A DNA stretch of 64,000 bases from Chloroflexota bacterium (lineage in GTDB: Bacteria > Chloroflexota > Dehalococcoidia > Lucifugimonadales > SAR202-VII-2): assembly GCA_003228115.1 (NCBI GenBank), contig QEVV01000004.1, forward strand, positions 165,577-229,576, read 5' to 3'. Positions 2,296 to 48,027 of this stretch are shown here, piece after piece. The notes under the pieces are model-generated. The model searched no databases. It saw nothing but the letters and a program-made list of their open reading frames with translations, and was not told the origin of the DNA. The position numbers and the translations under genes were made by a program. Every line of letters begins with the position of its first letter. The first letter of the stretch is position 1.

Positions 2296-2425
2296 CTTAG
2301 AAGACCGTCCGACACTAGCCTCCACCCTTATTGGCGGGCTAGCCCTGCTAAGAGGGCCCTCTCCCTTGCAGCGCCCGCCGGGATACACTAACGTAGCTTC
2401 ACTACTAACAAGTTGGAGGTCGGCC

Positions 2426-3595
2426 ATGGTAGAAGCAGCCAAGAAAACACTCCGTATCGACGCTGACAGTCACTTTCAACCCCTCCTAGACCACGACTCT
2501 CTGTCCGTCCTGCTGCCAGACTTCGAGCCAAGGCTCGTGGACATGATCGCACGGGACGCCGCCGTCTTCTCTGACCCCAATGCACGTGGCGGGGGCTTCA
2601 GTGGCTCGGCAGCAGGCCAGCAGGTGGGAGCCTTGGTGGGCGGCATCGCTGCCCCAAAGAGTTCTGGGCCCATAGGCCACGCTGAGTTCGAAGAGCGCGC
2701 CAAGCTGCTTCCTGCGACCGGATTCGACATGCAGGTGCTCATCCCTGATGGCGTTTTCTTGGAGAAGCCCTTCAAGTCGCCGATTGAGGTGGCCGAGTCA
2801 GGGATCGACCCTCTCATCCGCTACGCGCTGTGCGTCGGTTATAACAACGCCGTATCCCAGGCGCAGACCACCTTGGCCAACACCTTCATCGGCGGGGCGC
2901 TGGTCCCCTTCGGCGGTGGCACCGTGCAACAGTGCTGCGACGAAGCCATCAGAGGCGTCAAGGAACTGGGCCTCAAGGCCATCGTCATCAACGACAACTG
3001 GGCGGGCCGCAACTACGATTCGCTTGACCTGTACCCCTTCTGGCAAACCGTCAACGACCTGAACGTGCCGATCATCGTGCACCCTGCCCCCTTTGCCTGC
3101 CAGGTCACAGACCATGTGCCTCGCACCTATCGTCTGGGCTGGGAACGCATGCGGCGTCTACACATCAGCAACTACTTGGGCTTCGCCTTTGAGTATATGG
3201 TGGCCCTCGCCAGCCTCACCCTGGGCGGCGTATTCAAAGAGTTCCCCAACCTCCGCTTCTGTTTCTACGAGGCTGGCGGCTCCTGGCTTCCTTGGGTCAT
3301 GTTCACTCTTGACCACACCTACAATGTGGAGCGCCAGTGTGCTCGCTGCGACATACCCCCCAGCGAGCAGATCATGAAGTCTTGCTTCATCGCCGTGGAG
3401 CCCTACGAAGAACCCATCGTCGGGACCATTGCACAGGTGGGAAGCAAGAATTTCCTCGTGGGCAGCGACTACCCCCACCCACCCTCCACCTTCCCCAACA
3501 CCGCCGTAGGAATCGAACGGCTGGAGGGCCTGACGCAGCAAGACAAGGACAACATCCTGGGCATCAACGCTCGGGCCGTTTTCCAGGTTCCCTAA
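2426..3595 (+). CDS. amidohydrolase family protein (PF04909/ACMSD-like metal-dependent hydrolase)
   Basis: N-terminal IDADSHF metal motif and C-terminal VGSDYPHP motif. Start moved to ATG 2426, which is preceded by GGAGG at 2415-2419. Confidence 0.85.
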   Translation: MVEAAKKTLRIDADSHFQPLLDHDSLSVLLPDFEPRLVDMIARDAAVFSDPNARGGGFSGSAAGQQVGALVGGIAAPKSSGPIGHAEFEERAKLLPATGFDMQVLIPDGVFLEKPFKSPIEVAESGIDPLIRYALCVGYNNAVSQAQTTLANTFIGGALVPFGGGTVQQCCDEAIRGVKELGLKAIVINDNWAGRNYDSLDLYPFWQTVNDLNVPIIVHPAPFACQVTDHVPRTYRLGWERMRRLHISNYLGFAFEYMVALASLTLGGVFKEFPNLRFCFYEAGGSWLPWVMFTLDHTYNVERQCARCDIPPSEQIMKSCFIAVEPYEEPIVGTIAQVGSKNFLVGSDYPHPPSTFPNTAVGIERLEGLTQQDKDNILGINARAVFQVP

Positions 3596-12131: not shown

Positions 12132-12206
12132 GCCCCCGTAGCTCAGGGGATAGAGTGCTGGCCTCCGGAGCCAGAGACGGGAGTTCGAATCTCCCCGGGG
12201 GTACCA
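12132..12206 (+). tRNA. tRNA-Arg (anticodon CCG)
   Basis: Cloverleaf readable by eye. Acceptor gcccccg/cgggggt, D-arm tagctcaggggatagagtg, anticodon stem-loop ctggc-CTCCGGA-gccag, T-arm gggagttcgaatctccc, encoded CCA. Confidence 0.9.
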
Positions 12207-13360
12207 CCTTTCTCCTGTAGGGTTGGATCAAACTCCCGCGGGGTTTGGGATGGTTTACCCGAGCGCAGGAGCCTCAGTGGAGAGAACTCCTCAAGCTCCC
12301 CTAAAAGATCGTACTGCACGTATCGATCCGTTACACCCCCAGAGGCGTGTCCGAGCAACCTTTGGGCTACGTCCAACCGTCTTGAGAAGCGAAATACCCA
12401 CGTAGCGAACGTATCTCTAACGTCGTATGCGGCAGCCTCCACGCTAGCCTGCCTCAACATGGCCCTGAGGACATCCCCAATGCCACGAGAACTCAGCGGA
12501 AGTCCGTTCTTTACGGCCCGAAAGACAGTTTCGTCGTCAGCAAGGACTCCCCCCAGGCCACCAAGTAACGCCATGGTCTCCGGCAGCACCGGCGAGGGCG
12601 TCCGCCTGGGCTGGCCACTCCGCCTCTTCTGTCGCCGGTTAATAAGACGATCGTCTCCGACCCTTCGCACATCACCTGCGGTAAGCCTTGATTGCTCTAT
12701 CGGACGCCATCCGTGCCCAAAGGCCAAATGCCAAATTGCTTGATCCCTCGGGGATTTTTCGAGGGCGTCAACAGCCGCTGCCTCTCTGCCTCCCAGAGGA
12801 TTCGGTCCCGCCGAATCTACGCTGTCCTTAGACGGAGGGGCAACCGGGTTTCTCTCTAGCAGCCGCATAGAATCAATGGCATGCTGGTAGAGCCGTCGAA
12901 GGCTTGATTGTCGATTGAACCGCGTACGCCCGGTCGAGCCAGTCCAATGAAATTCCAAGAACTCTCGGATAGGCTGCCACTCCACCGGTAGAAAACGGAA
13001 TTCTCGCGCAAAAGGACCCCAGGCCTTCTGCCCCTCAGTAACGGCAGGCCTATGATCATTAAAGAGCAACTCCCTAACTAGGTCGTCAACGACATCGTTC
13101 GTCGGTATCGGGTGGTGGGCATTACTGACTGGCGGTGGCTGGGCAGGACGAACAAGTCCAAGGCACTCCCAGGTCGCTTTATGTAGCCGACCTCCTTCGT
13201 AACAATAGCCGAATGACGCCTGGGGCCAAGGCATTCCGAGAAGGGGATGAGGAGGAACACCCCAAAGCGGGGATTGCGTTGCAAACGTTGAAGATGAAAT
13301 TGGCCGACCTCCTCTACCAGTGAAATCCCCAAGTGGGCCGTTCGCAAAGTAACGACCCAT
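12143..13360 (-). mobile_element. tyrosine recombinase / phage-type integrase
   Basis: Box I GWRPIE, box II YDVRDTFATW, and LLGHASGGVTDRYV (His...Tyr nucleophile). The last 21 sense codons plus the stop (12143-12208) run antisense over the tRNA-Arg gene. The N-terminal start is uncertain. Confidence 0.8.
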
Positions 13361-13565
13361 TTAATTCTAATGGATCCCTGCCGCCACCCACCAACGCGGA
13401 AAAACCCTCACCTTCAAAAGCCTCCATGAACATCGGGACTTAGCGTTGTTGATCCCCCATCTTGACCTCTGCAATGCTGATTGCCGTAGCCTTTGCTGAA
13501 TTTGGGTTGCCCGCGAAGCCCGCCGCCGCATCGCTGTCACCGAACCGATGGGGGGGGTCCTGGAC

Positions 13566-13595
13566 GGGGAGATCGACTCTCCCCCGTCTCCACCA
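13566..13595 (+). repeat. tRNA 3'-end-like fragment (T-arm + acceptor strand + CCA)
   Basis: ggggag-atcgact-ctcccc T-arm-like hairpin, then cgtctcc-a-cca. No matching 5' half lies upstream. 14 nt resemble the tRNA-Arg T-loop region with 2 mismatches. Confidence 0.5.
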
Positions 13596-13611
13596 TGAAC
13601 ACAACAGGCTC

Positions 13612-13642
13612 GCGCTAGGTGGCTAGCGCCTTGAGTTTTTCT
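13612..13642 (+). terminator. intrinsic terminator-like hairpin after the tRNA-like fragment
   Basis: Stem-loop gcgctag-gtgg-ctagcgc, followed by cttgagtttttctttc. Confidence 0.45.
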
Positions 13643-13696
13643 TTCGTAGACCGCCTTTCGAGCCAGCCGTTTCTCAGAGGGGTATAGTATTATCCC

Positions 13697-14143
13697 ATGA
13701 GGCTTTTGTGGGTAATTCCTCTAGGAGCCGCCTCGGCCACTGCCGCCAACGCGGTTTTCTACTACTTAGTTACCGCTGGCTTTGGCGAAGAATTTCTTTT
13801 TCCGAATCAGTTCCCTCCGCCGGACCTGGCAGCCATGCCCGTGAACGACGTGATCATCTTCAGCGTGATTTTCTCTCTTGGCGCTGGGATCGTATTTGCC
13901 CAGGTCTCCAACCTAGCTAGAAAGCCCATTCGGATCTACCTAGTAATCGCCATTGTGACGCTCTTCCTCTCATTCGCTGTTCCCCTGAGTATCTCCTCAC
14001 CCCCAGTAGCCATGTCACACAAGCTCGTCCTCGTTGCTCTGCATGTTTTGGGTGCCATGGGTGTCGTCGGCACTCTCGTAGCCCTTGGTAGAGGAAATAA
14101 TCGTGGCAATCCTGGCCAGGCGGATGCAGAATTACGGGCATAG
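13697..14143 (+). CDS. four-TM membrane protein of unknown function
   Basis: 148-aa ORF with four clear hydrophobic helices. No recognisable catalytic motif. Confidence 0.5.
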   Translation: MRLLWVIPLGAASATAANAVFYYLVTAGFGEEFLFPNQFPPPDLAAMPVNDVIIFSVIFSLGAGIVFAQVSNLARKPIRIYLVIAIVTLFLSFAVPLSISSPPVAMSHKLVLVALHVLGAMGVVGTLVALGRGNNRGNPGQADAELRA

Positions 14144-14264
14144 CTCAGTAGATGGCTGGAAGCTAACGGAAAGGCCTGCAGGCACAACACGACGGTCGAA
14201 TCAAAAGGGCAGTAATGGGTGGCTCAGTAATCCTCAGGTTGTGAATATCAGGGGGTTCTAGGTC

Positions 14265-14450
14265 TTACCTAGCTATCCCCTGATGCAAGTCGGAACGCCA
14301 CGGTCTTGCCACTCCCATCACGCGACAGATCTCCGCCTTCGAATCACCTTGGAACTTTAGCGCCTTGGCCCTGGCTTTTCGGGCCTCCGATGATGTGCCG
14401 TCCCAGGGTACTTGTGTGTGGTCTCGCCTTTGCCGCTTCTTTCGAGCCAC
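14265..14450 (-). pseudogene. possible helix-turn-helix remnant of a recombinase or transposase
   Basis: 61-aa basic ORF. The KAEICRVMGVARPW segment looks like an HTH. It is isolated inside the island. Confidence 0.2.
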
Positions 14451-14542
14451 TACAGGCCGACTGTTTCTGGAACTTTCAGAGACCCCTGTCCGTCTGGAGA
14501 AAGTTGAACTGGTTTAGCAGCGCTCCTATTGGAGGACACTTC

Positions 14543-15283
14543 ATGAAAAGGTGTCTGTTAGTGCTTTTAGGACTTGCACCCTTGCTGGTGGCGGCTGTGG
14601 GTTGTGCCGGCGTCCTGAGCACTCCCACCCGGACGCCAATTCCATCGCCCACACCAGCCCCGCTCAAGGAATGGGTGTGGAAGGCGTTGGTGTGGAGGAT
14701 ACCACCGTTACGGTGCTGCTGCGGGTATACGCAGGTGTTGATGTCCAAGTGACCTTGGATGGCCAAGATGCTGACCAGGTCGAGGGTCCTCCGCCTATCC
14801 TTCGATACGTTTTTGAAAACGTGGCCCCTGGAACATATGAGGCGCAGGTAAGGGACGTGGTAGGCCACCATGAGAACCTTGAAGTTGTGGTGCCCCAGGT
14901 CGCTGAGCCCGCCGTCAGCTTCAATGACTTGTTTGCCAGCCCGGACACATACAGGGGAACCGAGATCTTGCTTGAGGGATTCTTCTTCATGGGGACTGAG
15001 ACCATTGTATTGAGCGAGCTGCTTGAGCCCTCCGGTCAGGCCGCCGGACACGTATGGCCCAAGGGACGCATGGTATGGGTGGAAGGCTCAATTCCATCTG
15101 ATATCTATGGACGGCCTCTACCAACAAATAGTAATTGGGCCATTGGAGCGCTATGGAAGCGTGCTGGTGAGAGGCCGCTTTGAGCACGGGGGTCGGTATG
15201 GGCATACGGGAGCCTTCGAGTCCCAGGTCGTTCTCACCGAGATGGAGTTGTTGCCGTGGTCGCCGCCACCGGGGCAAGGTTAG
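14543..15283 (+). pseudogene. lipoprotein gene disrupted by two frameshifts
   Basis: A lipobox signal peptide MKRCLLVLLGLAPLLVAAVGCAG begins at 14543. The body continues in another frame (ORF 14551-15183) from about 14660. The protein-like C-terminus returns to the first frame from about 15110 (ORF 15023-15283). Confidence 0.45.
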
Positions 15284-17054: not shown

Positions 17055-18044
17055 ATGCCGAACTTTTACGACGAGTGGCTGGGCCTCTGGGATAAGGCAA
17101 CGAAAGAGAAGCAGGAGGCCCGCAGAGTCATTCATGCGGAAGAGATAGAGTGGGTCAGCACCCCCCAGGATGCGAGCGTGGGTCTGCTAGCGGCTCCGGA
17201 GACGGGCTTCCGTACCTGGGGTACGGTTACCATGATCGCCGAAATCCCGGTGGGCTGGAACACGGGGAAGCACGCCCACGGCGAAGAGGGCATCCACATC
17301 GTGGAGGGCGAGGGATTCAGCGTTGTCAACGGCGTTCGTTACGACTGGGACAAGGGAACCACAATCTGGATTCCCTTTGGGGCCACGCACCAGCACTTCA
17401 ACACGGGTTCGGAACCCGCCCTGTACTACTCGGCTATGGCGGTGCATCTGGAGCACTTCGTGGGACTGCACAAGATGGAGCAGATTGAGGAGTGTGGCTA
17501 TACCGAATACCTCCCTGAAACGGAGGCATCCCCCGACGGATTGGACGAACTCGGACGCCGGATCTCCCTGCGATGGGACGACGCTCCCCGGCGAGAAGGT
17601 GGGGAGGACACGAAAAAGAACGAAGCTGCCCACTTTTCCGGCGACACCAACGAGGCGACCAAGGCGGCCCATCACGCCTTTATGCTGGGCTTTATGGGTT
17701 CCCCCCGGGCTGGCCAAGGCTTTCACAACAAGGAGATCGAGATCAGCGGCGTCTTAGGGGACGCTCCTCACACCCACGGAGGCAGACACGCTCATATGGA
17801 GGCGATCCTTTACGTTCTTCAAGGCGAGGGGTACACAATTATGGACGACGAGAGGGTGGAGTGGAAGAAGGGTTCGTGTTTCCACGTGCAGGGACCCCAA
17901 ACAATGCACCAGCACTTCGTGACCAGCGACGTGGCCTCCCATCTGCTGCGGACGGCGCCTGGGATCCGCTCGCAGTTCTTCCAGGACCTCGCCAAGGAGC
18001 GCTTCCCCTATCAGGTGTTCGAGGGTGCAGGACCAAACAAGTAG
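17055..18044 (+). CDS. bicupin protein (gentisate 1,2-dioxygenase-like fold)
   Basis: Two cupin motifs: GKHAHGEEGIHIVEGEG....G.....PFGATHQHFN and HGGRHAHMEAILYVLQGEG.......G....V.GPQTMHQHF. Confidence 0.7.
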   Translation: MPNFYDEWLGLWDKATKEKQEARRVIHAEEIEWVSTPQDASVGLLAAPETGFRTWGTVTMIAEIPVGWNTGKHAHGEEGIHIVEGEGFSVVNGVRYDWDKGTTIWIPFGATHQHFNTGSEPALYYSAMAVHLEHFVGLHKMEQIEECGYTEYLPETEASPDGLDELGRRISLRWDDAPRREGGEDTKKNEAAHFSGDTNEATKAAHHAFMLGFMGSPRAGQGFHNKEIEISGVLGDAPHTHGGRHAHMEAILYVLQGEGYTIMDDERVEWKKGSCFHVQGPQTMHQHFVTSDVASHLLRTAPGIRSQFFQDLAKERFPYQVFEGAGPNK

Positions 18045-18494: not shown

Positions 18495-19373
18495 CTACCG
18501 CTTCAAGCCGGAGTCGGCTGTCTTGTGTCGGTTGGGATCGGACTTCGTCGTCGCTAAACGCGGATCCACAAATTGGTGTGTCTCGTAGGATCTGTTGAAC
18601 CGTTCAAGGCACATGAGGAACCAGCCAATCCCACCCTCCATCCAGCCGAATCGCACGTTGGGATACTTGTCCAAAACACCGTTGAAGACAATGCTGGCAA
18701 AAGAAGTCATCAGGGTAACTGGGTGCCCCAACGCATGCGCTGAGGCCAGATACTCGAAGGTGTCGAAGCCCAGGCCAGAGTGGCCCCCGGCATGAGCGGC
18801 CATCATGCAGCCCAAACGGTTGGCCTCTTCATAAACGGGCCAATATTCCTTCGCTCCGTGATGCCTCCCAAGGTTCGGGGACGGGAGGATAGCGCCACAA
18901 AAGCCAAGGTCCGTCACAGCATGGTTCAGTTCTTCAACCGCCGCTTGAGGCTCGATCATCGGGATTATGCCCAGCCCCTTGAAGCGAGGGCTGCGTTGAA
19001 CGTAGGTCTGGTGCAGCCAGTCGTTGTAGCCTCGGGTCACCGCAATGGCCCATTCTCGGTTCGTTATCATACCGCTCGTCAGGGCCCTCGTGGCAAAGAG
19101 AACGGCGGTATCGATGCCGACATCGTCCAGAAAGTCGACCCACCCATCGGCGTCAGCTTGTACAAAGGAACCCTTGGGGTGGCGCACCGGTTGCGCAGCG
19201 TGCAGGTGGTCGGCCGCTGGAAACAGGCCCAAGCTGTTGTTCCAGCCCCTAGCCTGCCTGGCGACCAAGTCCTTGGGGATCAGGTCCTCCGGCATGAACT
19301 CGCCGATGGCATCCATGTCCTCGACCAAATGCCCGTCCCCATCGATAACAAGTTCCAGGTTCGTGTCCGCCAT
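18495..19373 (-). CDS. amidohydrolase family protein (PF04909-like)
   Basis: MADTNLELVIDGDGHLVE N-terminus. Start set to ATG 19373, preceded by AGGAGG. Paralogous to 2426-3595, 40173-41216 and 41459-42505. Confidence 0.85.
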   Translation of the reverse strand: MADTNLELVIDGDGHLVEDMDAIGEFMPEDLIPKDLVARQARGWNNSLGLFPAADHLHAAQPVRHPKGSFVQADADGWVDFLDDVGIDTAVLFATRALTSGMITNREWAIAVTRGYNDWLHQTYVQRSPRFKGLGIIPMIEPQAAVEELNHAVTDLGFCGAILPSPNLGRHHGAKEYWPVYEEANRLGCMMAAHAGGHSGLGFDTFEYLASAHALGHPVTLMTSFASIVFNGVLDKYPNVRFGWMEGGIGWFLMCLERFNRSYETHQFVDPRLATTKSDPNRHKTADSGLKR

Positions 19374-19490
19374 GTTATGCCTCCTAGGCTGATCACCTCG
19401 ACTACCAACGCAATCCCACCGAAGCATGCCAAGCGCCACTCGTCACTGCTCAAAAACCAAGACGCCCACTCGCGCCCTTCAACCCTCTTT

Positions 19491-19617: not shown

Positions 19618-20586
19618 TCAGTCCGGCATCGCTAGCGCACGCCGCGGATTCTCAACCATGATCGTTTTGATCGTGTCATCACCCACCCCCGCCTTCCGCA
19701 GCATCGGCATGAAGTCGGTTATGAGCTGGTCGGCGGTAAACTCCTGCGCACCGCCCCCCGACAGGAAGTGCATGATGCGGTCGGTGGCGAAGATCATCTG
19801 CCGCTCGTACCCATGCTCTAACAGATTCAGAATCCACGGGATCCGCATCTCGTTGGCAAAGGCATAGGGCGCACCCACTTCATCGCTAATGTGGTCAAAG
19901 GCCACGAATGCCCCCGCTTTGGCGACTTCCAAATGATAGTCAGGTAGGCGGGTGGCGTCGCAGTGGCCGATGATTACCCGGCTTGGCTCAACCCCCTCTT
20001 CCTCTATGAGCACTTTCAACTGCTCCCGGCCTGAAATAACGCCCACAGGGCTCGGAAGATGACTGGAAATGTGGGTCGTTATGCACGCGCCGGTACGTTT
20101 GCTGGCTCGTGCCGCAGCTCTGAACAAACCTTCTTCCATAGGCGTCATGTGCTCGCCCTTGGTGCCGATCTTAATAATGCCTGCCAGCACGTCGGTCGTC
20201 CCCATGCCCTTGGTCAGTTCCCGAACGAATATCTCCTCAAGGTCGTCTACGCCCTTTAGCGGCGGGTGAAAATGAGGCGGCATGCCCCGCTCGCTCCAGA
20301 ACCCCGTGCAAGCAACGATCCGCATATCTGAAGCGGTGGCAGCCTCCACCATAAAATTCACGTCCCGCCCCGAGGCAATGGGAGACAGATCCACCAGTAG
20401 ATCGGCCCCTGCTTTCTTCAGCGCCCGCAACTCCTGAACCACGCCGTCCATCACCACTTGACGATCAAAGGCCATGGCAGGATCCAAATCCCACCCAGGC
20501 ATCCCAAAGAGCAGGTGCTCGTGCATGAACGAGATATCTATGGATTCGGGTGCGACGTTTCCCGTGACGGTTTGAATCTTTGACAT
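19618..20586 (-). CDS. phosphotriesterase family (PTE/PLL-like) metal hydrolase
   Basis: N-terminal G.V.PE.I.....HEHL motif and length typical of the phosphotriesterase-like lactonase/PHP family. Confidence 0.85.
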   Translation of the reverse strand: MSKIQTVTGNVAPESIDISFMHEHLLFGMPGWDLDPAMAFDRQVVMDGVVQELRALKKAGADLLVDLSPIASGRDVNFMVEAATASDMRIVACTGFWSERGMPPHFHPPLKGVDDLEEIFVRELTKGMGTTDVLAGIIKIGTKGEHMTPMEEGLFRAAARASKRTGACITTHISSHLPSPVGVISGREQLKVLIEEEGVEPSRVIIGHCDATRLPDYHLEVAKAGAFVAFDHISDEVGAPYAFANEMRIPWILNLLEHGYERQMIFATDRIMHFLSGGGAQEFTADQLITDFMPMLRKAGVGDDTIKTIMVENPRRALAMPD

Positions 20587-22028: not shown

Positions 22029-22679
22029 CTATACGGGCCCGTACTTCCCCGACGCCCTCAGTGACATGTAGTTAGGCAGCGCCCTGTCCTTGAACCGGTC
22101 CCGCGAGAATACGGTCATCCACTCATCGAGAGGCCGTAGCGTACTTTCTGTCCCTGGCACGAAACCCTGCCAGTTCCTTGCGTGCTCTTCCGACCGGAAG
22201 AGGTTCATGCTCGCTCACTTCATTGCCCAGTCCATCTGAGTCGACAACTCCACCGGAGAATAGCCCACTACGGTACCGGGGTCCGACGACACTAGCACAC
22301 CATTCCGTACCTCCACGGCAACAGGGTCGCCGCAGTCCAGACAGAGCGCGTCTATGCGAATCGTCTTTCCTGGGAAAAGCCAGCACACGGCCAGCGATTC
22401 CAACCCTCACTGACCGTACCAGCGTTTCTGCCTGCCGATAGTGATGCGATAGTGGGTCGGCAGACTGCTGAAGGGCGCAATGGACACAATGGTGTCCGTG
22501 CCGGGGTGAAGCCACATGGGAATCCCCGAGGCCGCTAGATCATGGACAGCCTGTCTTCCCTCCTCCACCGGCAAAGCCAACTCCCTGGCCACCTCAGTGA
22601 AGTGGGGAGCCCTGCCCGTCTCAACAAATGAGCGGGTAATGAAATGGTATGTCCTGTCCAACAGTTCAATATCAGCCAT
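22029..22679 (-). CDS. MerB-like (alkylmercury lyase family) protein with two in-frame UGA codons; candidate selenoprotein (216 aa, U91 and U155)
   Basis: Three same-frame segments are joined by TGA at 22409-22407 and 22217-22215. ATG at 22679 is preceded by AAGGAAGG; TAG at 22031-22029. N-terminal HTH-like part, then YGQ-U-GLESL and AMK-U-ASMNLF align to MerB YAWC96ALD99TL and SFC159CHVHFF. Confidence 0.7.
22185..22202 (-). promoter_or_regulatory. SECIS-like hairpin 2
   Basis: The RNA CUCUUCC-GGUC-GGAAGAG is a perfect 7-bp stem. The GGUC loop starts 19 nt after UGA-2. Confidence 0.55.
22373..22401 (-). promoter_or_regulatory. SECIS-like hairpin 1
   Basis: The RNA GGAAUCGCUGGC-CGUGU-GCUGGCUUUUCC begins 6 nt after UGA-1. 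It has 10 pairs including two G.U, one 2x2 internal loop, and a GU in the apical loop. Confidence 0.5.
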
Positions 22680-22948
22680 GTACCTTCCTTCAAAATTCAC
22701 CCAGACACAAAGAAATAGAAACCTTCTGGGACCTTATCATGCTACCCATTGAGTAGGCCCGTGGCCTTGGTCGTCCGCTTCCTCGGAATCGTACGGTAAC
22801 CCTTCCTAGCGACCTATCTCTCTATGATCCCCTCGGCATTGCTCCAATAAATATCCGGAATGGCGCGAGCTTGCCCCAACTCTTGCCATACCCCTGCAAA
22901 CACCTCTATACCTTGCATCCTTCACACGGAGCCCGCATTTGCCGAAAT

Positions 22949-38051: not shown

Positions 38052-39746
38052 CTAGGAAGCTCCCACCACCTCGGCAATTACCTCTGCTTCCAGCCCATAG
38101 ATTTCCGCCGCTGCCTGCGCCGTAATAAACCCCGACTCAAGGTCCTCAATGACCCGCTCCCGGTCGCGCTCCTTGGGAGAGCCAACGCCACCGCCACCGC
38201 CTGGCTCCAAGCGAAGTACATCACCACCGCCCACAACCAAACCTGAGACCGGCTTGTCGTACTTCTGTTCCTCAGAAGTGCCGGGGTTCACGAACACGAA
38301 GCCCAGCTTGCCCTCGCCACCGCCAACAACTCCCGACGAGGGACGCCTGGCCGACCCACCGGTAAACTTGGAGTTGCCGTGAATCAAATAGTCCCTGCGG
38401 TAACCAAGTCCTCCCCGGAACTTACCTGCGCCGCCGGAGTCTGGCACCACCTCAAAGCTTTGAATCTGAATATCGAATTCTGATTCCACGATCTCAACGC
38501 TTGTGAACTTAGCGCCGCCGCTCCAGCCGTGGCCCGCCCCAGACCAGCCATCGCCGCCGTCAAAAGCTGGTCCACCGGGCGACAGCAGCTCGTACTGAAC
38601 GTAGGGTGGGCTGTCGTCCGACACATGGCTGATGATTGTTGAGCATTGCTGGCCCGAGTACGCCATGATTGGACGCCCCGCAGCCTGGCTAACCGCCGAG
38701 TAGACCATCGTAGAAACGCCGGGCATCGTCTGAGAGTAGTAGCCCACTGGCGCCGGGAACTCCGGGTCCAGAATGCTCCCCTTGCGGAAGCGGCACTCAA
38801 CGGTATCGGCCAGCGCGTAGTTGTTCGGCATGGATGGGTCGATAACGGCCAGGACAGCATGGTAGGCAATGCCTCGTGCGAAGGGGGGACGGATGTTGAT
38901 GGGGCCAGCGCTCTGGTCACCAGACGCTGAGAAGTCCAACACCACCTTATCGCCCTCCTTTATTACGGCCACGTGGAGCTTGATATAGACGCCCGGGTTC
39001 ACAATATCCTCAATGGAGCCTTCCATTTCCGTAACCCCATCGGGCCACAAAGCCACGTCATGGCGAATGCGGTCCGCGGTCCGAGAGGCAATCTGTTCGA
39101 ACGCTGACAACACCACGTCCTTGCCGTAGGTGTCCATCAAGTCCTGCATCCGCTGGATTCCCATGGTCTGTAGCGCCCCCGCTTGGGCGCTAAGGTCGCC
39201 AAGTACAAGGTGCGGCGTTCGGCTATTGGCCGTAATAAAGTGCTCGGTTTCTTTTATTCTCTTGCCCTGGCTCAAGAACTTCACCGGCAAGATGTGAAGG
39301 CCCTCACCGTAGATGTCCCTAGCTTGTGAATTGCGGCTCCCCGGAGAAATCCCGCCGATGTCGCTCTTGTGCCCCATGCTGGCGAAGAAGGCCACGACCT
39401 CGCCGTCGTAGAAGGCCGGAGCTACCACCACCATGTCCATGGGATGAGGAACCCCGCTGTAGTAAGGGTGGTTGCTCAGAAAACAGTCGCCCTCCTCCAT
39501 CTCTTCAATATCGTAGAACTGGAGCACGCCCTTAACGCAGTCGGGGTAGGCCCCCAGGTGGGGGGGAAGACCGGAGTACTGGCCGATCACACGCCCTTCT
39601 TGGTCCAAAATCCCGCAGCTGAAATCATGCGACTCACGAATAATGGTGGAAAATCCTGTGCGCAGCACAGCAACTTCCATCTCACGCACAATGCCATCCA
39701 AGCGCGCCTGGATGACCTCCTGAGTTATAACGTCAACGTCAACCAT
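38052..39746 (-). CDS. hydantoinase B / oxoprolinase family protein (HyuB-like)
   Basis: The N-terminus D.IT.EVI...L..I..EM.....R...S.IIRE..DFSCGI.D..G is the hallmark of Hydantoinase_B. Confidence 0.9.
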   Translation of the reverse strand: MVDVDVITQEVIQARLDGIVREMEVAVLRTGFSTIIRESHDFSCGILDQEGRVIGQYSGLPPHLGAYPDCVKGVLQFYDIEEMEEGDCFLSNHPYYSGVPHPMDMVVVAPAFYDGEVVAFFASMGHKSDIGGISPGSRNSQARDIYGEGLHILPVKFLSQGKRIKETEHFITANSRTPHLVLGDLSAQAGALQTMGIQRMQDLMDTYGKDVVLSAFEQIASRTADRIRHDVALWPDGVTEMEGSIEDIVNPGVYIKLHVAVIKEGDKVVLDFSASGDQSAGPINIRPPFARGIAYHAVLAVIDPSMPNNYALADTVECRFRKGSILDPEFPAPVGYYSQTMPGVSTMVYSAVSQAAGRPIMAYSGQQCSTIISHVSDDSPPYVQYELLSPGGPAFDGGDGWSGAGHGWSGGAKFTSVEIVESEFDIQIQSFEVVPDSGGAGKFRGGLGYRRDYLIHGNSKFTGGSARRPSSGVVGGGEGKLGFVFVNPGTSEEQKYDKPVSGLVVGGGDVLRLEPGGGGGVGSPKERDRERVIEDLESGFITAQAAAEIYGLEAEVIAEVVGAS

Positions 39747-40172: not shown

Positions 40173-41216
40173 ATGATCATAGACTGCGACACCCACTACC
40201 TGCCCCGCACATGGCTCGACCGCGTCGATCCCGCCCTCGTTGGCGATGCCATCGCTATCGAATGGAATGGCGCTGACGGTGTGTTCTATCGCAATGGACG
40301 CCGCGTCATGGACCTAGCGGAACCAGTGTGGAATCTTGAGCAGCGAGTGCCAGGCATGCAGCAGGATGGGTTCGACCTTCAGGTGCTTATCCCGGAGAAC
40401 CGGCCACTGCTCTATGAGACGGACCGCGACCTGGGGTGCGCCCTCGCCCGAGCCTACAACGATGCAGCAGCCGATGACTTGAAAGCAGGCGGTCCCTTTT
40501 TCGGCGTCGCTTGGGTCTACCTGCCCGATATCGAAGAGGCCATCGTTGAGATGGAGCGGGCTGTAAAGGTCCTCGGACTTAAGGCCGTAAAACTCATGGG
40601 GAACTTCGGTTCAGTTCACCTGGGCGGCCCGGAGCTGCAGCCCTTCTACGCCAAGGCTGCCGAGCTTGATGTTCCCATTATCCTCCACCCACCAGCCCGC
40701 ACCTACGACGACCAGCCGATCAACCCCTTGTTGGTTGGGGCACCCAGCTTCGAGCACGAATATTGGTTCCTCTCGTCGGCGTATGGCTTTCCCTTCACCT
40801 ACATGGTCACCATTGCCAACCTCATTTTCAGCGGCACCATGGACCGCTTCCCAGACCTCCGCTTCGGTTTCTTCGAGGCTGGCGGCGAATGGGTCCCCTA
40901 CGCTATGGATAGGCTGGACGTTTACTACGACGAACACTACCGCCGCGGGACAGAAGTCGTTACCAAGCTCCAGCACAGACCCTCTGAGTACTTCACTAGG
41001 TTCTATGTTGCCATCCTCTCTCGCGAGCGCCACCTCCCTGCCCTATTGCAGCAAATCCCAGACCATCGCCTCATTGTGGGCAGCGACTTCCCGCACCAAG
41101 ACCCTAGTGGCACTTGGCCCGACACCCTCTCCGAGTTGCGAGGCATAGAAGGCTTCGCCCCCGGTGACCTTAACGCCATGCTCGACACCAACGCCCGTTC
41201 CTTCCTGGGCCTCTAG
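40173..41216 (+). CDS. amidohydrolase family protein (PF04909-like)
   Basis: MIIDCDTHY N-terminus, IILHPP, FFEAGGEW and VGSDFPH motifs. Confidence 0.85.
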   Translation: MIIDCDTHYLPRTWLDRVDPALVGDAIAIEWNGADGVFYRNGRRVMDLAEPVWNLEQRVPGMQQDGFDLQVLIPENRPLLYETDRDLGCALARAYNDAAADDLKAGGPFFGVAWVYLPDIEEAIVEMERAVKVLGLKAVKLMGNFGSVHLGGPELQPFYAKAAELDVPIILHPPARTYDDQPINPLLVGAPSFEHEYWFLSSAYGFPFTYMVTIANLIFSGTMDRFPDLRFGFFEAGGEWVPYAMDRLDVYYDEHYRRGTEVVTKLQHRPSEYFTRFYVAILSRERHLPALLQQIPDHRLIVGSDFPHQDPSGTWPDTLSELRGIEGFAPGDLNAMLDTNARSFLGL

Positions 41217-41458: not shown

Positions 41459-42505
41459 CTAAAGCCCGTACAAGCGGCGAGGGTTGTCATCCATAATCTT
41501 GTCCACTGCCTGCATCGGAATAACGCCCGACGTCCGCAGCTTGCGCAACGCCTCCAGCTCACTGGACGTGTCAGCGTGGCCGTAGTCGGAGCCGATCAAC
41601 AAATTGTCCTCCCCTGCGTACCCTAAGATATAGGGAAGGTCGTCATCTGTCTGGCAAGCCACAAACATCTGGTAGTCCTTCATCAAGCTTCCTACCGTCC
41701 GGTCGGGAAAGGCCCACGACATCCTCTGGAACCGGGCCGATAGATCGTGCATAACGTAGGGCACCCAGGACGCACTGACCTCTACGAAACCCCAGCGCAG
41801 GTCAGGGAACTTCTCCGGGAGTTGGGCCACCACGATGCAATGGAAGGCCGCTATCGCCGGCACCTTGGCAAGCCACAACAATGCCAGGTTGGACGTCATC
41901 ACCGCGTCGAAGAAGGGACTCGCTGATCCAGCGTGAAAGCAAATAGCCAAGTCCAGCTTGCTTGCTTCTTCATACAAGGGGAAGAAGTAAGGGTCGATCG
42001 GGATTCTGCTTTGCTCCATGCCCCGCATGAACACCCCTGAAGCCCCGTTTTCCTTCCCAAAGTGGAGTTCAGCCAGTGCCTGGTTCATATCCATGGTCGG
42101 CGCCATGACCACCCATCCTAGACGGCCCTTGGCCGCCTTCCAAATGTCGGCCATCCAGCGGTTGTAGCCGCGGCACATGGCCGCTTCCACCTCCGGCCGG
42201 TTGAACGACAAATTTAGAAAGATGGTCGGGTATAACACCTGAACATCTACGCCCAACTCGTCCATGTGACTAAGGCGAGCGCTAACATCCACCATGTCCG
42301 AGCTTTCGACAGCCGTACCAGTCCTTGCCGGGTCGAAGGTCCTACGGGTCTGTAACCGGCCTTCAATGTTCCAGTAGGCACGTTCTTGTCCTTGCCCATC
42401 CGGAGCCATCACCGTAGTAGGCTGATACTTCTCGTCCGCATCAACCATGTACGACCAAGTGTGTTCGTTCTCGATAACGTGGCAGTCAGAATCAATGATC
42501 GGCAT
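41459..42505 (-). CDS. amidohydrolase family protein (PF04909-like)
   Basis: MPIIDSDCHV N-terminus, FVEVSASW and IGSDYGHAD motifs. Confidence 0.85.
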   Translation of the reverse strand: MPIIDSDCHVIENEHTWSYMVDADEKYQPTTVMAPDGQGQERAYWNIEGRLQTRRTFDPARTGTAVESSDMVDVSARLSHMDELGVDVQVLYPTIFLNLSFNRPEVEAAMCRGYNRWMADIWKAAKGRLGWVVMAPTMDMNQALAELHFGKENGASGVFMRGMEQSRIPIDPYFFPLYEEASKLDLAICFHAGSASPFFDAVMTSNLALLWLAKVPAIAAFHCIVVAQLPEKFPDLRWGFVEVSASWVPYVMHDLSARFQRMSWAFPDRTVGSLMKDYQMFVACQTDDDLPYILGYAGEDNLLIGSDYGHADTSSELEALRKLRTSGVIPMQAVDKIMDDNPRRLYGL

Positions 42506-45962: not shown

Positions 45963-46829
45963 CTAGCTTCGGGCGTTGGCGAAAGCCTGCTCAAGTGCCC
46001 GGCGTGTGAACACCACGGACATGTCAGTCTTGTACTCTTTGGAGCCCCTGATATCTGCCGTCGGGTCCACCGCAGCCCGGACCGTCTCGGCGGCCTCGCG
46101 GATGGCCTCAGGTGTTACCTGCTGGCCCTGGAGCACTGCCTCAGCATCAGTGGCCCTAATCGGAGTGGGCCCTGCGGCGCCCAGAGCAATGCCAACCGAC
46201 TGGCACTTGCCACTCGCATCGACATCAAGAACGGCCGCCACGCAGACCGTAGCGTAATCGTCCGCAGTACGGGGAAGGAACTTCAGGAAGGCCGCACCAG
46301 CGCTGGCAGACTGCTTAGGCACAATCACTTCCGTCAGCACTTCGTCCGGCTCGGTGACGGTGGTGTAGTAGTCCTCGAAGAAGTCGGCAAGGTCGACCGT
46401 GCGCTCACCCTTACCATTCGCCAGCTTGACCGATGCACCAAGGGCCAGAAGGGCCGGCGGCGAGTCCTGGGCCGGGTCGGCGTGTGTTAGCGCCCCACCA
46501 ACCGTCGCCACTTCACGGATTCGGATGGTAGCAACATGCTTGTAGGTGTCGTGTAGCAATGAAGCGCCCTGAAGCGCAACATCTGACATCTCCAACGTCC
46601 GGTGCGTGGTCAACGCCCCAATGCGCAGGCTGCCGTTCTCGCTGGCGATGCCACTGAGTTCGGCAACATTCGCAAGGCTGATGACGTGATCAGGCACCAC
46701 GAGCTGCTGCTTCATCATGAGCACGAGTCCCGTGCCTCCGGCAATCAGCTTGGCGTTCTCGCCGTGCTGCGCCAGTAGGTTGTGAACCTCTTTTAGAGTG
46801 CTGGGAGCGTGAAACTCAAATCCTCTCAT
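45963..46829 (-). CDS. FAD-binding medium subunit of a molybdenum hydroxylase (CoxM/XdhB-like)
   Basis: F.FHAPSTL.E........A.L.AGGT.L...MK pattern and 288-aa length. Confidence 0.9.
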   Translation of the reverse strand: MRGFEFHAPSTLKEVHNLLAQHGENAKLIAGGTGLVLMMKQQLVVPDHVISLANVAELSGIASENGSLRIGALTTHRTLEMSDVALQGASLLHDTYKHVATIRIREVATVGGALTHADPAQDSPPALLALGASVKLANGKGERTVDLADFFEDYYTTVTEPDEVLTEVIVPKQSASAGAAFLKFLPRTADDYATVCVAAVLDVDASGKCQSVGIALGAAGPTPIRATDAEAVLQGQQVTPEAIREAAETVRAAVDPTADIRGSKEYKTDMSVVFTRRALEQAFANARS

Positions 46830-46879
46830 CGACTAGCCCCCTTCGGCTTCGTTTATCTTCATTCTAGCAAGCGTGTGTT

Positions 46880-47386
46880 TTAGTCGGAAGCGCCGGGAAT
46901 CGGCTCTACTTCCTGACCGGATGCAGCCTTGATAGCCCGGATAATGCCGTAGTAACCGGTGCAGCGGCACAGGTTGCCCATCATCCATTCCTTAATCTCT
47001 TGCTCGTTCGGCTTGGAGTTGAAGTCCAGCAGCGCCTTAGCCGCCGTTACCTGTCCAGGCGTGCAAATTCCACATTGGAACCCGCCCTGGTCGATGAACG
47101 CCTGCTGAATCGGCAGCAACTCACCGTCTGCCTTGGCAATCCCCTCAATCGTCGTGATATCCGTCCCGTTCGCCATGGGCGTCAGGGTCAGGCAAGAACT
47201 AACCATCTTGCCGTCAACCAGTACAGTGCAAGCGCCGCAGACGCCAACGCTGCAACCTTCCTTGGTTCCCGTCAAGCCAACGTCATATCGGATGAAGTCA
47301 ACCAGAAGCCGGTTGGGCTTCACTTCCTTCTCGTACGTTTGCCCGTTGATGGTCAGCTTTACGGCTACCTTATTTGTGTCACTCAT
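46880..47386 (-). CDS. [2Fe-2S] small subunit of a molybdenum hydroxylase (CoxS-like)
   Basis: Cys motifs C.VGVCGAC.V and GFQCGICTPG....CRCTGY. Confidence 0.9.
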   Translation of the reverse strand: MSDTNKVAVKLTINGQTYEKEVKPNRLLVDFIRYDVGLTGTKEGCSVGVCGACTVLVDGKMVSSCLTLTPMANGTDITTIEGIAKADGELLPIQQAFIDQGGFQCGICTPGQVTAAKALLDFNSKPNEQEIKEWMMGNLCRCTGYYGIIRAIKAASGQEVEPIPGASD

Positions 47387-47694
47387 TCGTTATCCTCTTT
47401 CCTACAAAATCTGCGCCATGATAAACTACCGCCCACTCACATGCAAGCAGAGTCGGCAGGCGGAGGGAGACCAAATCTATCAGCATCTACGGCTACATTC
47501 TAAGGCCCAAGCGAACCGCCACGCTAGTGCTACGAGACCCGTCCCTTCATCACACCCAGGGTACCTTCGCTAGCCGCGCTCAATAGCCGCTCGAAAGGGC
47601 GTTCCGGGTTGAAAGCAACGTAGCCAACGCAAGCCACTAGAGAACGAACACACCCCGCGGCTAGACGACAACACCACTCCCTGTGCCGCGGGCT

Positions 47695-47770
47695 GGGGTG
47701 CAGGGGCAAAGCCCCTCCGGGGGGCAAGGGGGACGTCCCCCTCTTTACCAAAACGTTCGATGGTGGGCCC
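47695..47770 (+). repeat. Family-A element, copy 10 (3' part degenerate)
   Basis: Sequence ggggtgcaggggcaaagcccctccggggggcaagggggacgtccccctc..aaaacgttcgatggtgggcc. Confidence 0.75.
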
Positions 47771-47873
47771 TAAGCCTGCCGAAGGGATGGGCCGGGCAGA
47801 AAGCAGCGTAGGCCAAGGCAGGAGAAACACACCCGTCTGGTAGACAATAACGCCACCCTCCACGCCTCCACCT

Positions 47874-47964
47874 GGGGTGCAGGGCGCAGCCCGCCGGGGG
47901 CAAGGGGGGTGTCCCCCCTCTACCAAAACATTTGAGGGTGGGCCGGGCGGGACAGCAGCGTCAC
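47874..47964 (+). repeat. Family-A element, copy 11
   Basis: Sequence ggggtgcagggcgcagcccgccgggggcaaggggggtgtcccccct..aaaacatttgagggtgggccgggcgggacagcagcgtc. Confidence 0.85.
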
Positions 47965-48027
47965 TGACGCAAGACCGTCCATCCCTAACGCAGGCCTTTA
48001 AACCAATACGTAACACCTGGAGACCCC

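Follow-up and report, generated by a model that had tools for sequence, protein, structure and literature searches.

What is encoded by a gene that resembles merB but has TGA at both of the positions where the organomercurial lyase MerB has its catalytic cysteines? The question is raised by a minus-strand locus in the genome assembly of a Chloroflexota bacterium (GCA_003228115.1, contig QEVV01000004.1, positions 165,577 to 229,576); this whole stretch of 64,000 nt, the DNA that was analyzed, is called the window below, and coordinates are positions in it. An initial annotation suggested that the two TGA codons are read as selenocysteine (Sec), giving a MerB homolog with two such residues. The analysis described here supports that suggestion: the TGAs are conserved on the catalytic columns, there are relatives with Cys at both, and a hairpin follows each TGA. 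The locus very probably holds an intact selenoprotein gene of the MerB superfamily, in which Sec91 and Sec155, together with Glu94, are predicted to form a bis-selenolate/carboxylate lyase site. An organomercurial-lyase activity may be proposed by analogy with MerB.

The positions given in the initial annotation for the minus-strand frame, its ATG, ribosome-binding site, two TGA codons and TAG, and the length of 216 aa, were all re-read and agree. The features of the gene, including its putative selenocysteine insertion sequence (SECIS)-type hairpins, are as follows:

22029..22679, minus strand: coding sequence of the predicted MerB-like selenoprotein, 216 residues including two Sec; it has a Pfam MerB match, and its termini align with those of homologs.
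22683..22690, minus strand: Shine-Dalgarno-like AAGGAAGG, with a 3-nt spacer to the ATG, read from the sequence.
22679-22677, minus strand: ATG start, read from the sequence.
22407..22409, minus strand: UGA codon 91, putatively read as Sec, in the column of MerB Cys96.
22398..22400, minus strand: Glu94 codon, GAA, in the column of MerB Asp99, the proton donor.
22379..22395, minus strand (22373-22401 with its lower stem): SECIS-type hairpin 1, nt 15-31 counted from the U of UGA-91.
22332..22343, minus strand: Cys113-x-x-Cys116 (CLDC), a clade-specific motif.
22215..22217, minus strand: UGA codon 155, putatively read as Sec, in the column of MerB Cys159.
22185..22202, minus strand: SECIS-type hairpin 2, nt 16-33 counted from the U of UGA-155.
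22031-22029, minus strand: TAG stop, at the end of the frame of 216 sense codons.

TGA-91 and TGA-155 are the only in-frame stops before the TAG in the frame 22679..22029, and gene prediction breaks the gene up into a 90-aa piece and remnants. A scan for promoters and terminators around it gave nothing above shuffled expectation.

The read-through product matches the Pfam MerB profile (PF03243) with E=1.9e-18 and 67 bits, the cut-off being 27, and the matches in a phmmer search of all PDB sequences were MerB2 (5c17, E=1e-8) and MerB (1s6l, 3f0p, and related entries) only. The initial annotation had aligned the protein to MerB correctly: phmmer puts codon 91 on Cys96 and codon 155 on Cys159, with the proposed Asp-to-Glu replacement, Glu94, on the Asp99 column, and the TGAs are 64 residues apart where MerB has a spacing of 63. 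The possibility raised there that a proper alignment would move the TGAs off the Cys96 and Cys159 columns is not borne out by the HMMER alignments. An AlphaFold2 model of the window protein, built on alignment A1, has a mean predicted local distance difference test score of 85.4 and a predicted template modeling score of 0.80. When it was compared with 350,542 PDB chains by Foldseek, the significant matches were again only MerB2 (5c17), MerB (3f0o, 3f2f), and related structures, with E from 1e-9 to 1e-6, template modeling (TM) scores of 0.49-0.62, about 200 aligned columns, and 16-20% identity; after these come weak winged-helix matches to the N-terminal domain. With MerB and MerB2 (EC 4.99.1.2; PDB 3F0P, 3F0O, 5C17) the predicted protein therefore shares its overall fold, the three active-site columns and their near-equal spacing, and with MerB its length (212 aa, versus 216 here). 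It is unlike MerB in having Sec, Glu, and Sec in place of Cys96, Asp99, and Cys159, which are chemically analogous but not identical; in its extra CxxC, of which MerB has the first Cys only (Cys117); and in having no merA, merR, merT, or merP nearby.

The two TGAs are present in independent assemblies. Records of the 90-residue N-terminal fragment exist for 12 contigs, and the whole 651-nt gene, both TGAs included, is identical in nine other independently assembled metagenomes (JGI 3300009409, 3300036808, 3300009786, and 3300027844; ENA ERZ23486727, ERZ23486729, and ERZ27247693; Logan SRR11563580 and SRR5819239); a tenth contig with the gene, ERZ23486728, stops short of codon 155. TGC or TGT, which had been named as the sign of an error at these sites, did not appear: the independent assemblies show TGA. 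The ENA records that have the same gene are labeled COLA18, and presumably derive from the Canada Basin (Arctic Ocean) metagenomes of Colatriano et al. 2018, re-assembled in the OceanDNA catalog.

The TGAs are also present in other genes. At least 75 other distinct genes have TGA at the same two columns, which makes a chance coincidence of two nonsense mutations as implausible as the initial annotation had held it to be. The scattered stops and frameshifts that it would have expected of a pseudogene were not what relatives showed; they have TGA at these columns, and Cys in the more distant ones. In a pooled Nei-Gojobori comparison of 333 family pairs at 75-95% identity, from which the SECIS codons were excluded, the ratio of nonsynonymous to synonymous substitution rates (dN/dS) was 0.16 for the 60 codons before the first TGA column (site 1), 0.19 between this and the second (site 2), and 0.24 after site 2. 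Beyond each TGA, then, the frame is under purifying selection, and those parts of the gene are evidently translated.

How widespread such genes are was approached through proteins, genomes, and metagenome contigs. A word-indexed search of 5.8 billion proteins found 82 relatives in two classes: about 28 that are “full-length” with Trp at both columns, and about 54 of around 155 residues, with Cys at the first column and their C-terminus immediately ahead of the second. None of the 82 has Cys at the second column. The Trp,Trp records (P0001-P0023, P0026, P0030, P0058, and P0071; loci L001 and L006-L010) include two, L001 and L006, whose DNA has in-frame stops at both columns, seen as TGA, and those from JGI and ENA come from contigs of 1-3 kb that were gene-called with a table in which TGA is Trp. 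Because the DNA has in-frame TGA there, Trp at both columns is a gene-calling artefact; such “W,W” records make a handy fingerprint of multi-Sec genes in metagenome protein catalogs. In an Anaerolineaceae chromosome (L003), site 1 is Cys and site 2 is TGA, after which the frame goes on as SGMNFFRSEEH...

Relatives were found in 181 species by a scan of one genome per species, the pattern for which matched only Cys or Trp codons at site 1; being blind to two-Sec forms, it yields no count of two-Sec species. In the best 80 loci, which were examined, site 2 is TGA without exception (80/80) and is followed in frame by xxMNLFRSEEHxxxW in every case. These loci come from Dehalococcoidia, Acidimicrobiia, Methylomirabilota/Rokubacteria, Nitrospinota, Burkholderiales, and Alphaproteobacteria, and from deltaproteobacterial lineages. 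Metagenome contigs, scanned with the DNA pattern TGGTWYGSNCARTGAGSNYTNGAR, gave at least 120 stretches, with at least 79 MerB-like genes that have TGA at site 1 among the matches listed. Site 2, 65-70 codons downstream, is TGA in all 75 of these listed loci that reach it; the other four end earlier, at the end of the contig. The family sequences collected from DNA number 151: the 79 listed with TGA at site 1, and 72 with Cys (TGC or TGT) there.

An exhaustive profile search covered 1.84 billion cluster representatives. Its profile had 155 positions, most rows of alignment A1 being shortened proteins, and could not rank full-length forms by their C-terminus; at E<=0.001 it returned 1192 representative clusters, fragments and more distant MerB relatives included. 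Among the best 150, 42 end exactly before site 1, as N-terminal fragments of two-Sec genes do, 19 have Cys at site 1 and stop at site 2, and six are more distant full-length proteins with Cys at both columns. In the alignment, Cys stands under both TGAs in P0111, P0112, P0113, P0166, P0185, P0197, and P0229. Cys/Sec homolog pairs, the selenoprotein signature to which the initial annotation had appealed, are thus represented by distant relatives with Cys at both columns and by 72 close ones with Cys at site 1; the homologs that it had proposed checking have a conserved TGA inside the family and Cys/Cys further out.

Residue 94, which the collecting pattern left free to be E or D, is Glu in all 151 DNA-derived sequences, and Asp in a few protein records. 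Cys113 is found in 99% and Cys116 in 94% of the 151, and the C113xxC116 motif is specific to the clade. Family-wide, Trp87, Gln90, Glu94, Trp100, Pro103, Gly104, Cys113, Cys116, Asp126, Sec155, Met158, Phe161, and Arg162 are invariant or nearly so, part of this invariance being forced by the collecting pattern; the window protein has Asn at Asp126. The CxxC might serve as a resolving dithiol, as a metal hand-off site, or structurally. Family members are annotated as “hypothetical protein” or as truncated “organomercurial lyase.”

Some variants stand apart. In P0108 (184 aa), an in-frame internal deletion takes out the region of the second Sec, so that the CLDCG segment is joined straight to the C-terminal tail. 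In two two-Sec copies (L146, at ~1740-1800; L189, at ~759-810), a single-base indel within the SECIS or directly behind it destroys the frame a few codons past the second TGA; this may be an assembly error or genuine decay.

The minimal SECIS of E. coli fdhF has an 11-nt spacer and a 17-nt minihelix with a GGUC-type loop. The window hairpins are of this kind, with a geometry recognized by bacterial SelB: each is a small hairpin inside the coding sequence that begins 11-12 nt after the UGA, is 17-18 nt long, and has a G and then U/G near the start of a 4-5 nt loop, which at site 2 is GGUC, as in fdhF. They are unlike the fdhF element in that there are two in one short mRNA, 192 nt apart, and in the site-1 stem, where two G-U pairs stand in tandem and the peptide dictates most of the sequence. 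Hairpin 1 has a 6-bp stem (GCUGGC/GCUGGC, including the two tandem G-U pairs), the loop CGUGU, and 17-nt spacing; its predicted free energy is -7.2 kcal/mol alone and -12.2 with the lower stem, nt 9-12/34-37. Hairpin 2, CUCUUCC-GGUC-GGAAGAG, has a 7-bp stem and 19-nt spacing, lies within the codons for L-F-R-S-E-E, and has -9.8 kcal/mol alone. A published model of bacterial SECIS elements gives a loop of 3-9 nt, a stem of 4-16 bp, G in the first two loop positions, and 16-37 nt from UGA to loop (PMC13188914), and adds a minimum free energy at or below -7.5 kcal/mol (PMC13188914, Fig. 2). Both window hairpins lie within its limits for loop, stem, loop G, and spacing, and hairpin 1 with its lower stem and hairpin 2 alone lie within the limit for free energy.

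Across the family, the site-1 hairpin has the consensus GCUGGC-NGUNN-GCUGGC, in codons for (Ser/Ala)-Leu-Ala-Val-(Cys/Arg/Ser)-Trp-Leu. All six pairs are present in 79 of the 79 listed Sec forms, versus 16 of the 72 Cys forms, and in an alignment of 77 Sec sequences every one of the 462 cells of the stem is paired, with one compensatory change, G-C to C-G. The comparison can be confined to forms that share the same peptide. In the Sec forms among these, the third base of the preceding codon is G in 74 of 74, Leu is CUG or CUA in 74 of 74, and the Cys/Arg/Ser codon is NGC (TGC, CGC, or AGC) in 74 of 74; the Cys forms have CGG, CGA, CGT, TCC, TTG, and others at that codon, and the hairpin is complete in 16 of 28. 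Synonymous sites are fixed in the Sec but not in the Cys forms, and therefore the hairpin at site 1 goes with the TGA rather than with the peptide.

The site-2 stem varies more, and does so in pairs. In 140 distinct sequences, 97.9% of its pair cells are standard, and three of the seven pairs have compensatory double changes (C-G to U-A, 8 times; C-G to A-U, once; C-G to U-A, 12 times, at the closing pair), in all 21 cells as against 4.0 in shuffles, none of 500 of which reach this number. As a control, sliding the partner strand by 1-3 nt leaves at most 60% of cells paired. The changes can be followed in the codons: Glu to Lys (GAA to AAA) goes with Phe UUU instead of UUC in 8 of 8 cases, and Arg AGG goes with Ser UCU, where otherwise CGG goes with UCG, out of six synonymous codons for each. 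The loop is GGUC in 145 of the 151 sequences.

The two sites differ in how they vary between Cys and Sec. In a neighbor-joining tree of 137 core sequences, a crude one used only for the interleaving of Sec and Cys forms, Sec/Sec and Cys/Sec forms are interleaved, with about 12 changes by parsimony versus about 46 with shuffled labels. Local peculiarities cut across the two forms as well: a rare 68-codon spacing is common to L069 (Cys) and L092, L144, and L155 (Sec); RAWR-U-AGMNLF to L012, L014, L018, and L027 (Cys) and L147 (Sec); and LPQA-U-STMNLF to L019 (Cys) and L165 (Sec). The closest grouping of the window protein is with Sec/Sec forms of marine appearance (L161, L193, and L171) and with Cys/Sec forms from Dehalococcoidia, the latter being also the nearest genome relatives of its gene. 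Site 1, to judge from this tree and these shared features, has been exchanged between Cys and Sec several times; Cys forms in which the hairpin is complete may have reverted recently, or may represent an ancestral state that was already pre-adapted. The site-1 hairpin is all but specified by the conserved peptide (S/A)LAV(C/R/S)WL, which plausibly makes the switch between Cys and Sec easy; where a peptide comes this close to prescribing a SECIS in its own coding sequence, there is a concrete way for Cys to be converted to Sec repeatedly. The second Sec, by contrast, appears to be obligatory in the clade, site 2 being TGA wherever the column is present. That there is no Cys version of site 2 inside the clade suggests that selenium there is mechanistically required, not merely advantageous.

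One MerB-like selenoprotein has been described before. SaoL (“selenocysteine-assisted organometallic lyase,” NF040728), described by Haft and Gwadz (bioRxiv 10.1101/2022.07.06.499078), has a single Sec, which lies on the Cys159 column as part of a Cys-Sec dipeptide; the protein is the marker of a locus of nine genes, SAO, in about 50 species of strict anaerobes. Reviews of the prokaryotic selenoproteome from 2022 and 2026 have MerB-like proteins only as the one-Sec SaoL (PMC9312934, PMC13188914), and no description of a two-Sec MerB-like family was found in the literature. SaoL shares with the family described here its MerB fold, its PF03243 domain, the Sec on the Cys159 column, and a location outside mer operons. 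The family here differs in its second Sec, on the Cys96 column and with its own SECIS; in Glu at the proton-donor column, where SaoL has Asp; in having no conserved neighbors, whereas SaoL belongs to the SAO locus; and in its presence in 181 species genomes of many phyla, whereas SaoL is from strict anaerobes. The residue before Sec155 is K in the window protein and R, A, S, T, L, or K in the family, so that the CU dipeptide is absent.

NCBIfam scores place the family outside both known groups. NF040728 is the best NCBIfam match of the window protein, at 45.7 bits versus a cut-off of 140, and nine other diverse clade members score 27.8-44.3 bits against it. Against the MerB equivalogs, the window protein scores 27.6 bits (NF009710, cut-off 193) and 24.1 bits (NF033555, cut-off 200), and the same nine members 20-48 bits, below the cut-offs. 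By these scores, the missing CU dipeptide, and the lack of Sao, Mer, or conserved neighbors, the clade is a third branch of the MerB superfamily, one without a curated NCBIfam model, separate from SaoL and much larger.

More than one Sec per protein is in itself uncommon: a small subset of 119 selenoprotein families has two or three (PMC13188914). The present family resembles other multi-Sec prokaryotic selenoproteins in having more than one Sec-UGA per gene, each needing a SECIS of its own. It is unlike them in that the two Sec are ligands of one predicted metal site, and do not form a UxxU- or CxxU-type redox motif.

The surroundings of the gene give less information. The tRNA genes of the window are those for tRNA-Arg and tRNA-Asn only (ARAGORN, Rfam). 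In all homologous loci scanned, two of 13 tRNA genes are for tRNA-Sec: one at 12803-12900 in a metagenome-assembled genome (MAG) of Methylomirabilota (L072), 2.2 kb from the MerB-like gene (Rfam RF01852, 69 bits), and one at 12825-12920 in an alphaproteobacterial MAG (L048), about 9 kb from it (RF01852, 71 bits). Pfam found no sel protein genes among the genes around either. The neighbors in the window are an epimerase, a phosphotriesterase-family hydrolase, an amidohydrolase, a major facilitator superfamily transporter, and an HtrA protease. There is no mer gene within about 8 kb of the window gene, in agreement with the initial annotation, which had seen no merA, merR, merT, or merP nearby, and Sao and Mer models had no match among ten neighboring window proteins. 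The best neighbor cluster, in 16 of the 151 loci, is a luciferase-like/F420-type oxidoreductase, judged from sequence alone, and a zinc-type dehydrogenase (judged by eye) is near the gene in 10.

One further neighbor was noted. In four two-Sec loci (L163, L148, L151, and relatives), the gene that follows immediately downstream, in the same orientation, is for a protein of about 340 residues that is rich in Cys and has several CxxC-type motifs; it looks by eye like an iron-sulfur/CCG-type subunit and is the sole neighbor seen exclusively with two-Sec forms.

Can the gene be explained without a new two-Sec family? A decaying merB-like gene with two nonsense mutations, or a sequencing or assembly error, might be suspected from the two in-frame stops and from the way in which gene callers split the gene; the chance of this is negligible, and it is already refuted by the identical gene in nine other independent assemblies, by at least 75 other distinct genes that have the same two TGAs without other stops, and by dN/dS of 0.19-0.24 beyond the stops, to which the hairpin behind each stop can be added. 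It is also very improbable that the TGAs are read as Trp, Gly, or Cys, through an alternative code or near-cognate read-through. Public protein records do show Trp at both columns, but these are gene calls on 1-3 kb contigs that have in-frame TGA. TGA is an ordinary stop in the window, as the initial annotation had held from a few examples, and terminates five of its 27 well-supported (Pfam-matched) genes; the family spans phyla with the standard code; TGA is confined to two columns that are Cys in relatives; SECIS-type hairpins track it; and tRNA-Sec lies near the gene in two loci. Membership in a described family, either SaoL or the canonical MerB of mer operons, would account for SaoL being the best NCBIfam match, and for the Sec that SaoL too has on the Cys159 column (10.1101/2022.07.06.499078). 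We consider it hardly credible, given scores far below the SaoL and MerB cut-offs for the window protein and nine other members, the absence of the CU dipeptide, the presence of a second Sec, neighbors that match no Sao or Mer model, and lineages far outside the strictly anaerobic hosts of SaoL.

What the protein does is a separate matter. As a two-Sec lyase, it would be made by recruiting SelB-GTP-Sec-tRNA(Sec) twice on one mRNA, inserting Sec91 and Sec155. Sec91, Glu94, and Sec155 would then take the places of MerB Cys96, Asp99, and Cys159, giving a site of two selenolates and a carboxylate; this would bind the soft metal(loid) center of an organometallic compound, whose carbon ligand would be protonated, in a protonolysis of the carbon-metal bond. 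Neither a mer operon nor a dedicated MerA partner would be involved. Several points weigh against this scheme. A bis-selenolate site is expected to hold Hg(II) so tightly that release of the product without a partner is hard to picture. The TM-scores to MerB are moderate, at about 0.6. The site-1 stem is near-invariant, with little covariation (the one compensatory pair), and part of it is forced by the conserved peptide, the Trp codon above all. None of selA, selB, selC, and selD was found within the 64-kb window (ARAGORN and Rfam; Pfam on 30 open reading frames, ORFs). Finally, across the 151 loci there is no mer, SAO, or other conserved neighbor beyond the best cluster of 16, and with no conserved partner the function therefore cannot be read from context.

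Might the protein be a genuine two-Sec selenoprotein and yet not a lyase? It could instead be a trap or chaperone for soft metals (Hg, Cd, Ag, Cu), or a diselenide/selenenyl-sulfide redox center recycled by Cys113-x-x-Cys116. Such a role rivals the lyase as to function only, leaving the selenoprotein status untouched; it is a serious rival, and one that we think possible if on the whole unlikely. No MerA or other conserved partner is there to remove a metal product, the clade has its own conserved CxxC, absent from MerB, the best-matching MerB2 and D99S structures are metal-binding variants, and the recurring neighbors are oxidoreductase-like. Against it stands the acidic residue (Glu, rarely Asp) at the proton-donor position in every member, to be expected for protonolysis and not for mere binding; the whole MerB fold, substrate-side core included, also appears in the model to be kept.

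As a bolder version of the lyase reading, the clade might be an obligately selenium-dependent, mer-independent organometal lyase whose role in ordinary bacteria of the sea, of soils, and of sediments is to demethylate methylmercury or to cleave some other natural organometal(loid); this is offered as speculation, and we are inclined to doubt it as it stands. If the proteins are organometal lyases, a major part of the potential for demethylation in the environment would have escaped surveys in which Cys96/Asp99/Cys159 are required, since protein databases cut every member at TGA. The versions with two selenolates would be tuned for substrates at trace concentrations, and in the repeated switching between Cys and Sec at the first ligand there would be a natural experiment on the reasons for using selenium. 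Were methylmercury the substrate, the family would bear on which organisms demethylate it in oceans and soils where canonical merB is scarce. Whatever the substrate, the family adds a large and phylogenetically broad group to the selenoproteins, with members that current annotation shortens to 90 or 155 residues; two Sec in a single protein, moreover, are rare in bacteria. We know of no earlier protein with selenolates as both ligands of a predicted metal site. The natural U/U, C/U, and C/C versions make a clean system for comparing selenium with sulfur in metal-carbon chemistry.

Elsewhere in the window, the tRNA-Arg(CCG) gene at 12132-12206 abuts a phage-type integrase ORF (12143-13360, minus strand), after which comes a stretch with a low GC content at third codon positions (0.55-0.58, versus about 0.72 in flanking genes); the region, window positions 12132-15200, may be a small element integrated at the tRNA gene. 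The window is rich in catabolic paralogs, which would suit a marine Chloroflexota genome of the SAR202 type. Four Amidohydro_2 paralogs lie at 2366-3595, 18495-19439, 40173-41216, and 41459-42505, and the ORFs at 17055-18044, 19618-20586, 38052-39746, and 45963-50280 are for a cupin dioxygenase-like protein, a phosphotriesterase-family protein, hydantoinase B, and a molybdoenzyme of the xanthine/CO-dehydrogenase type.

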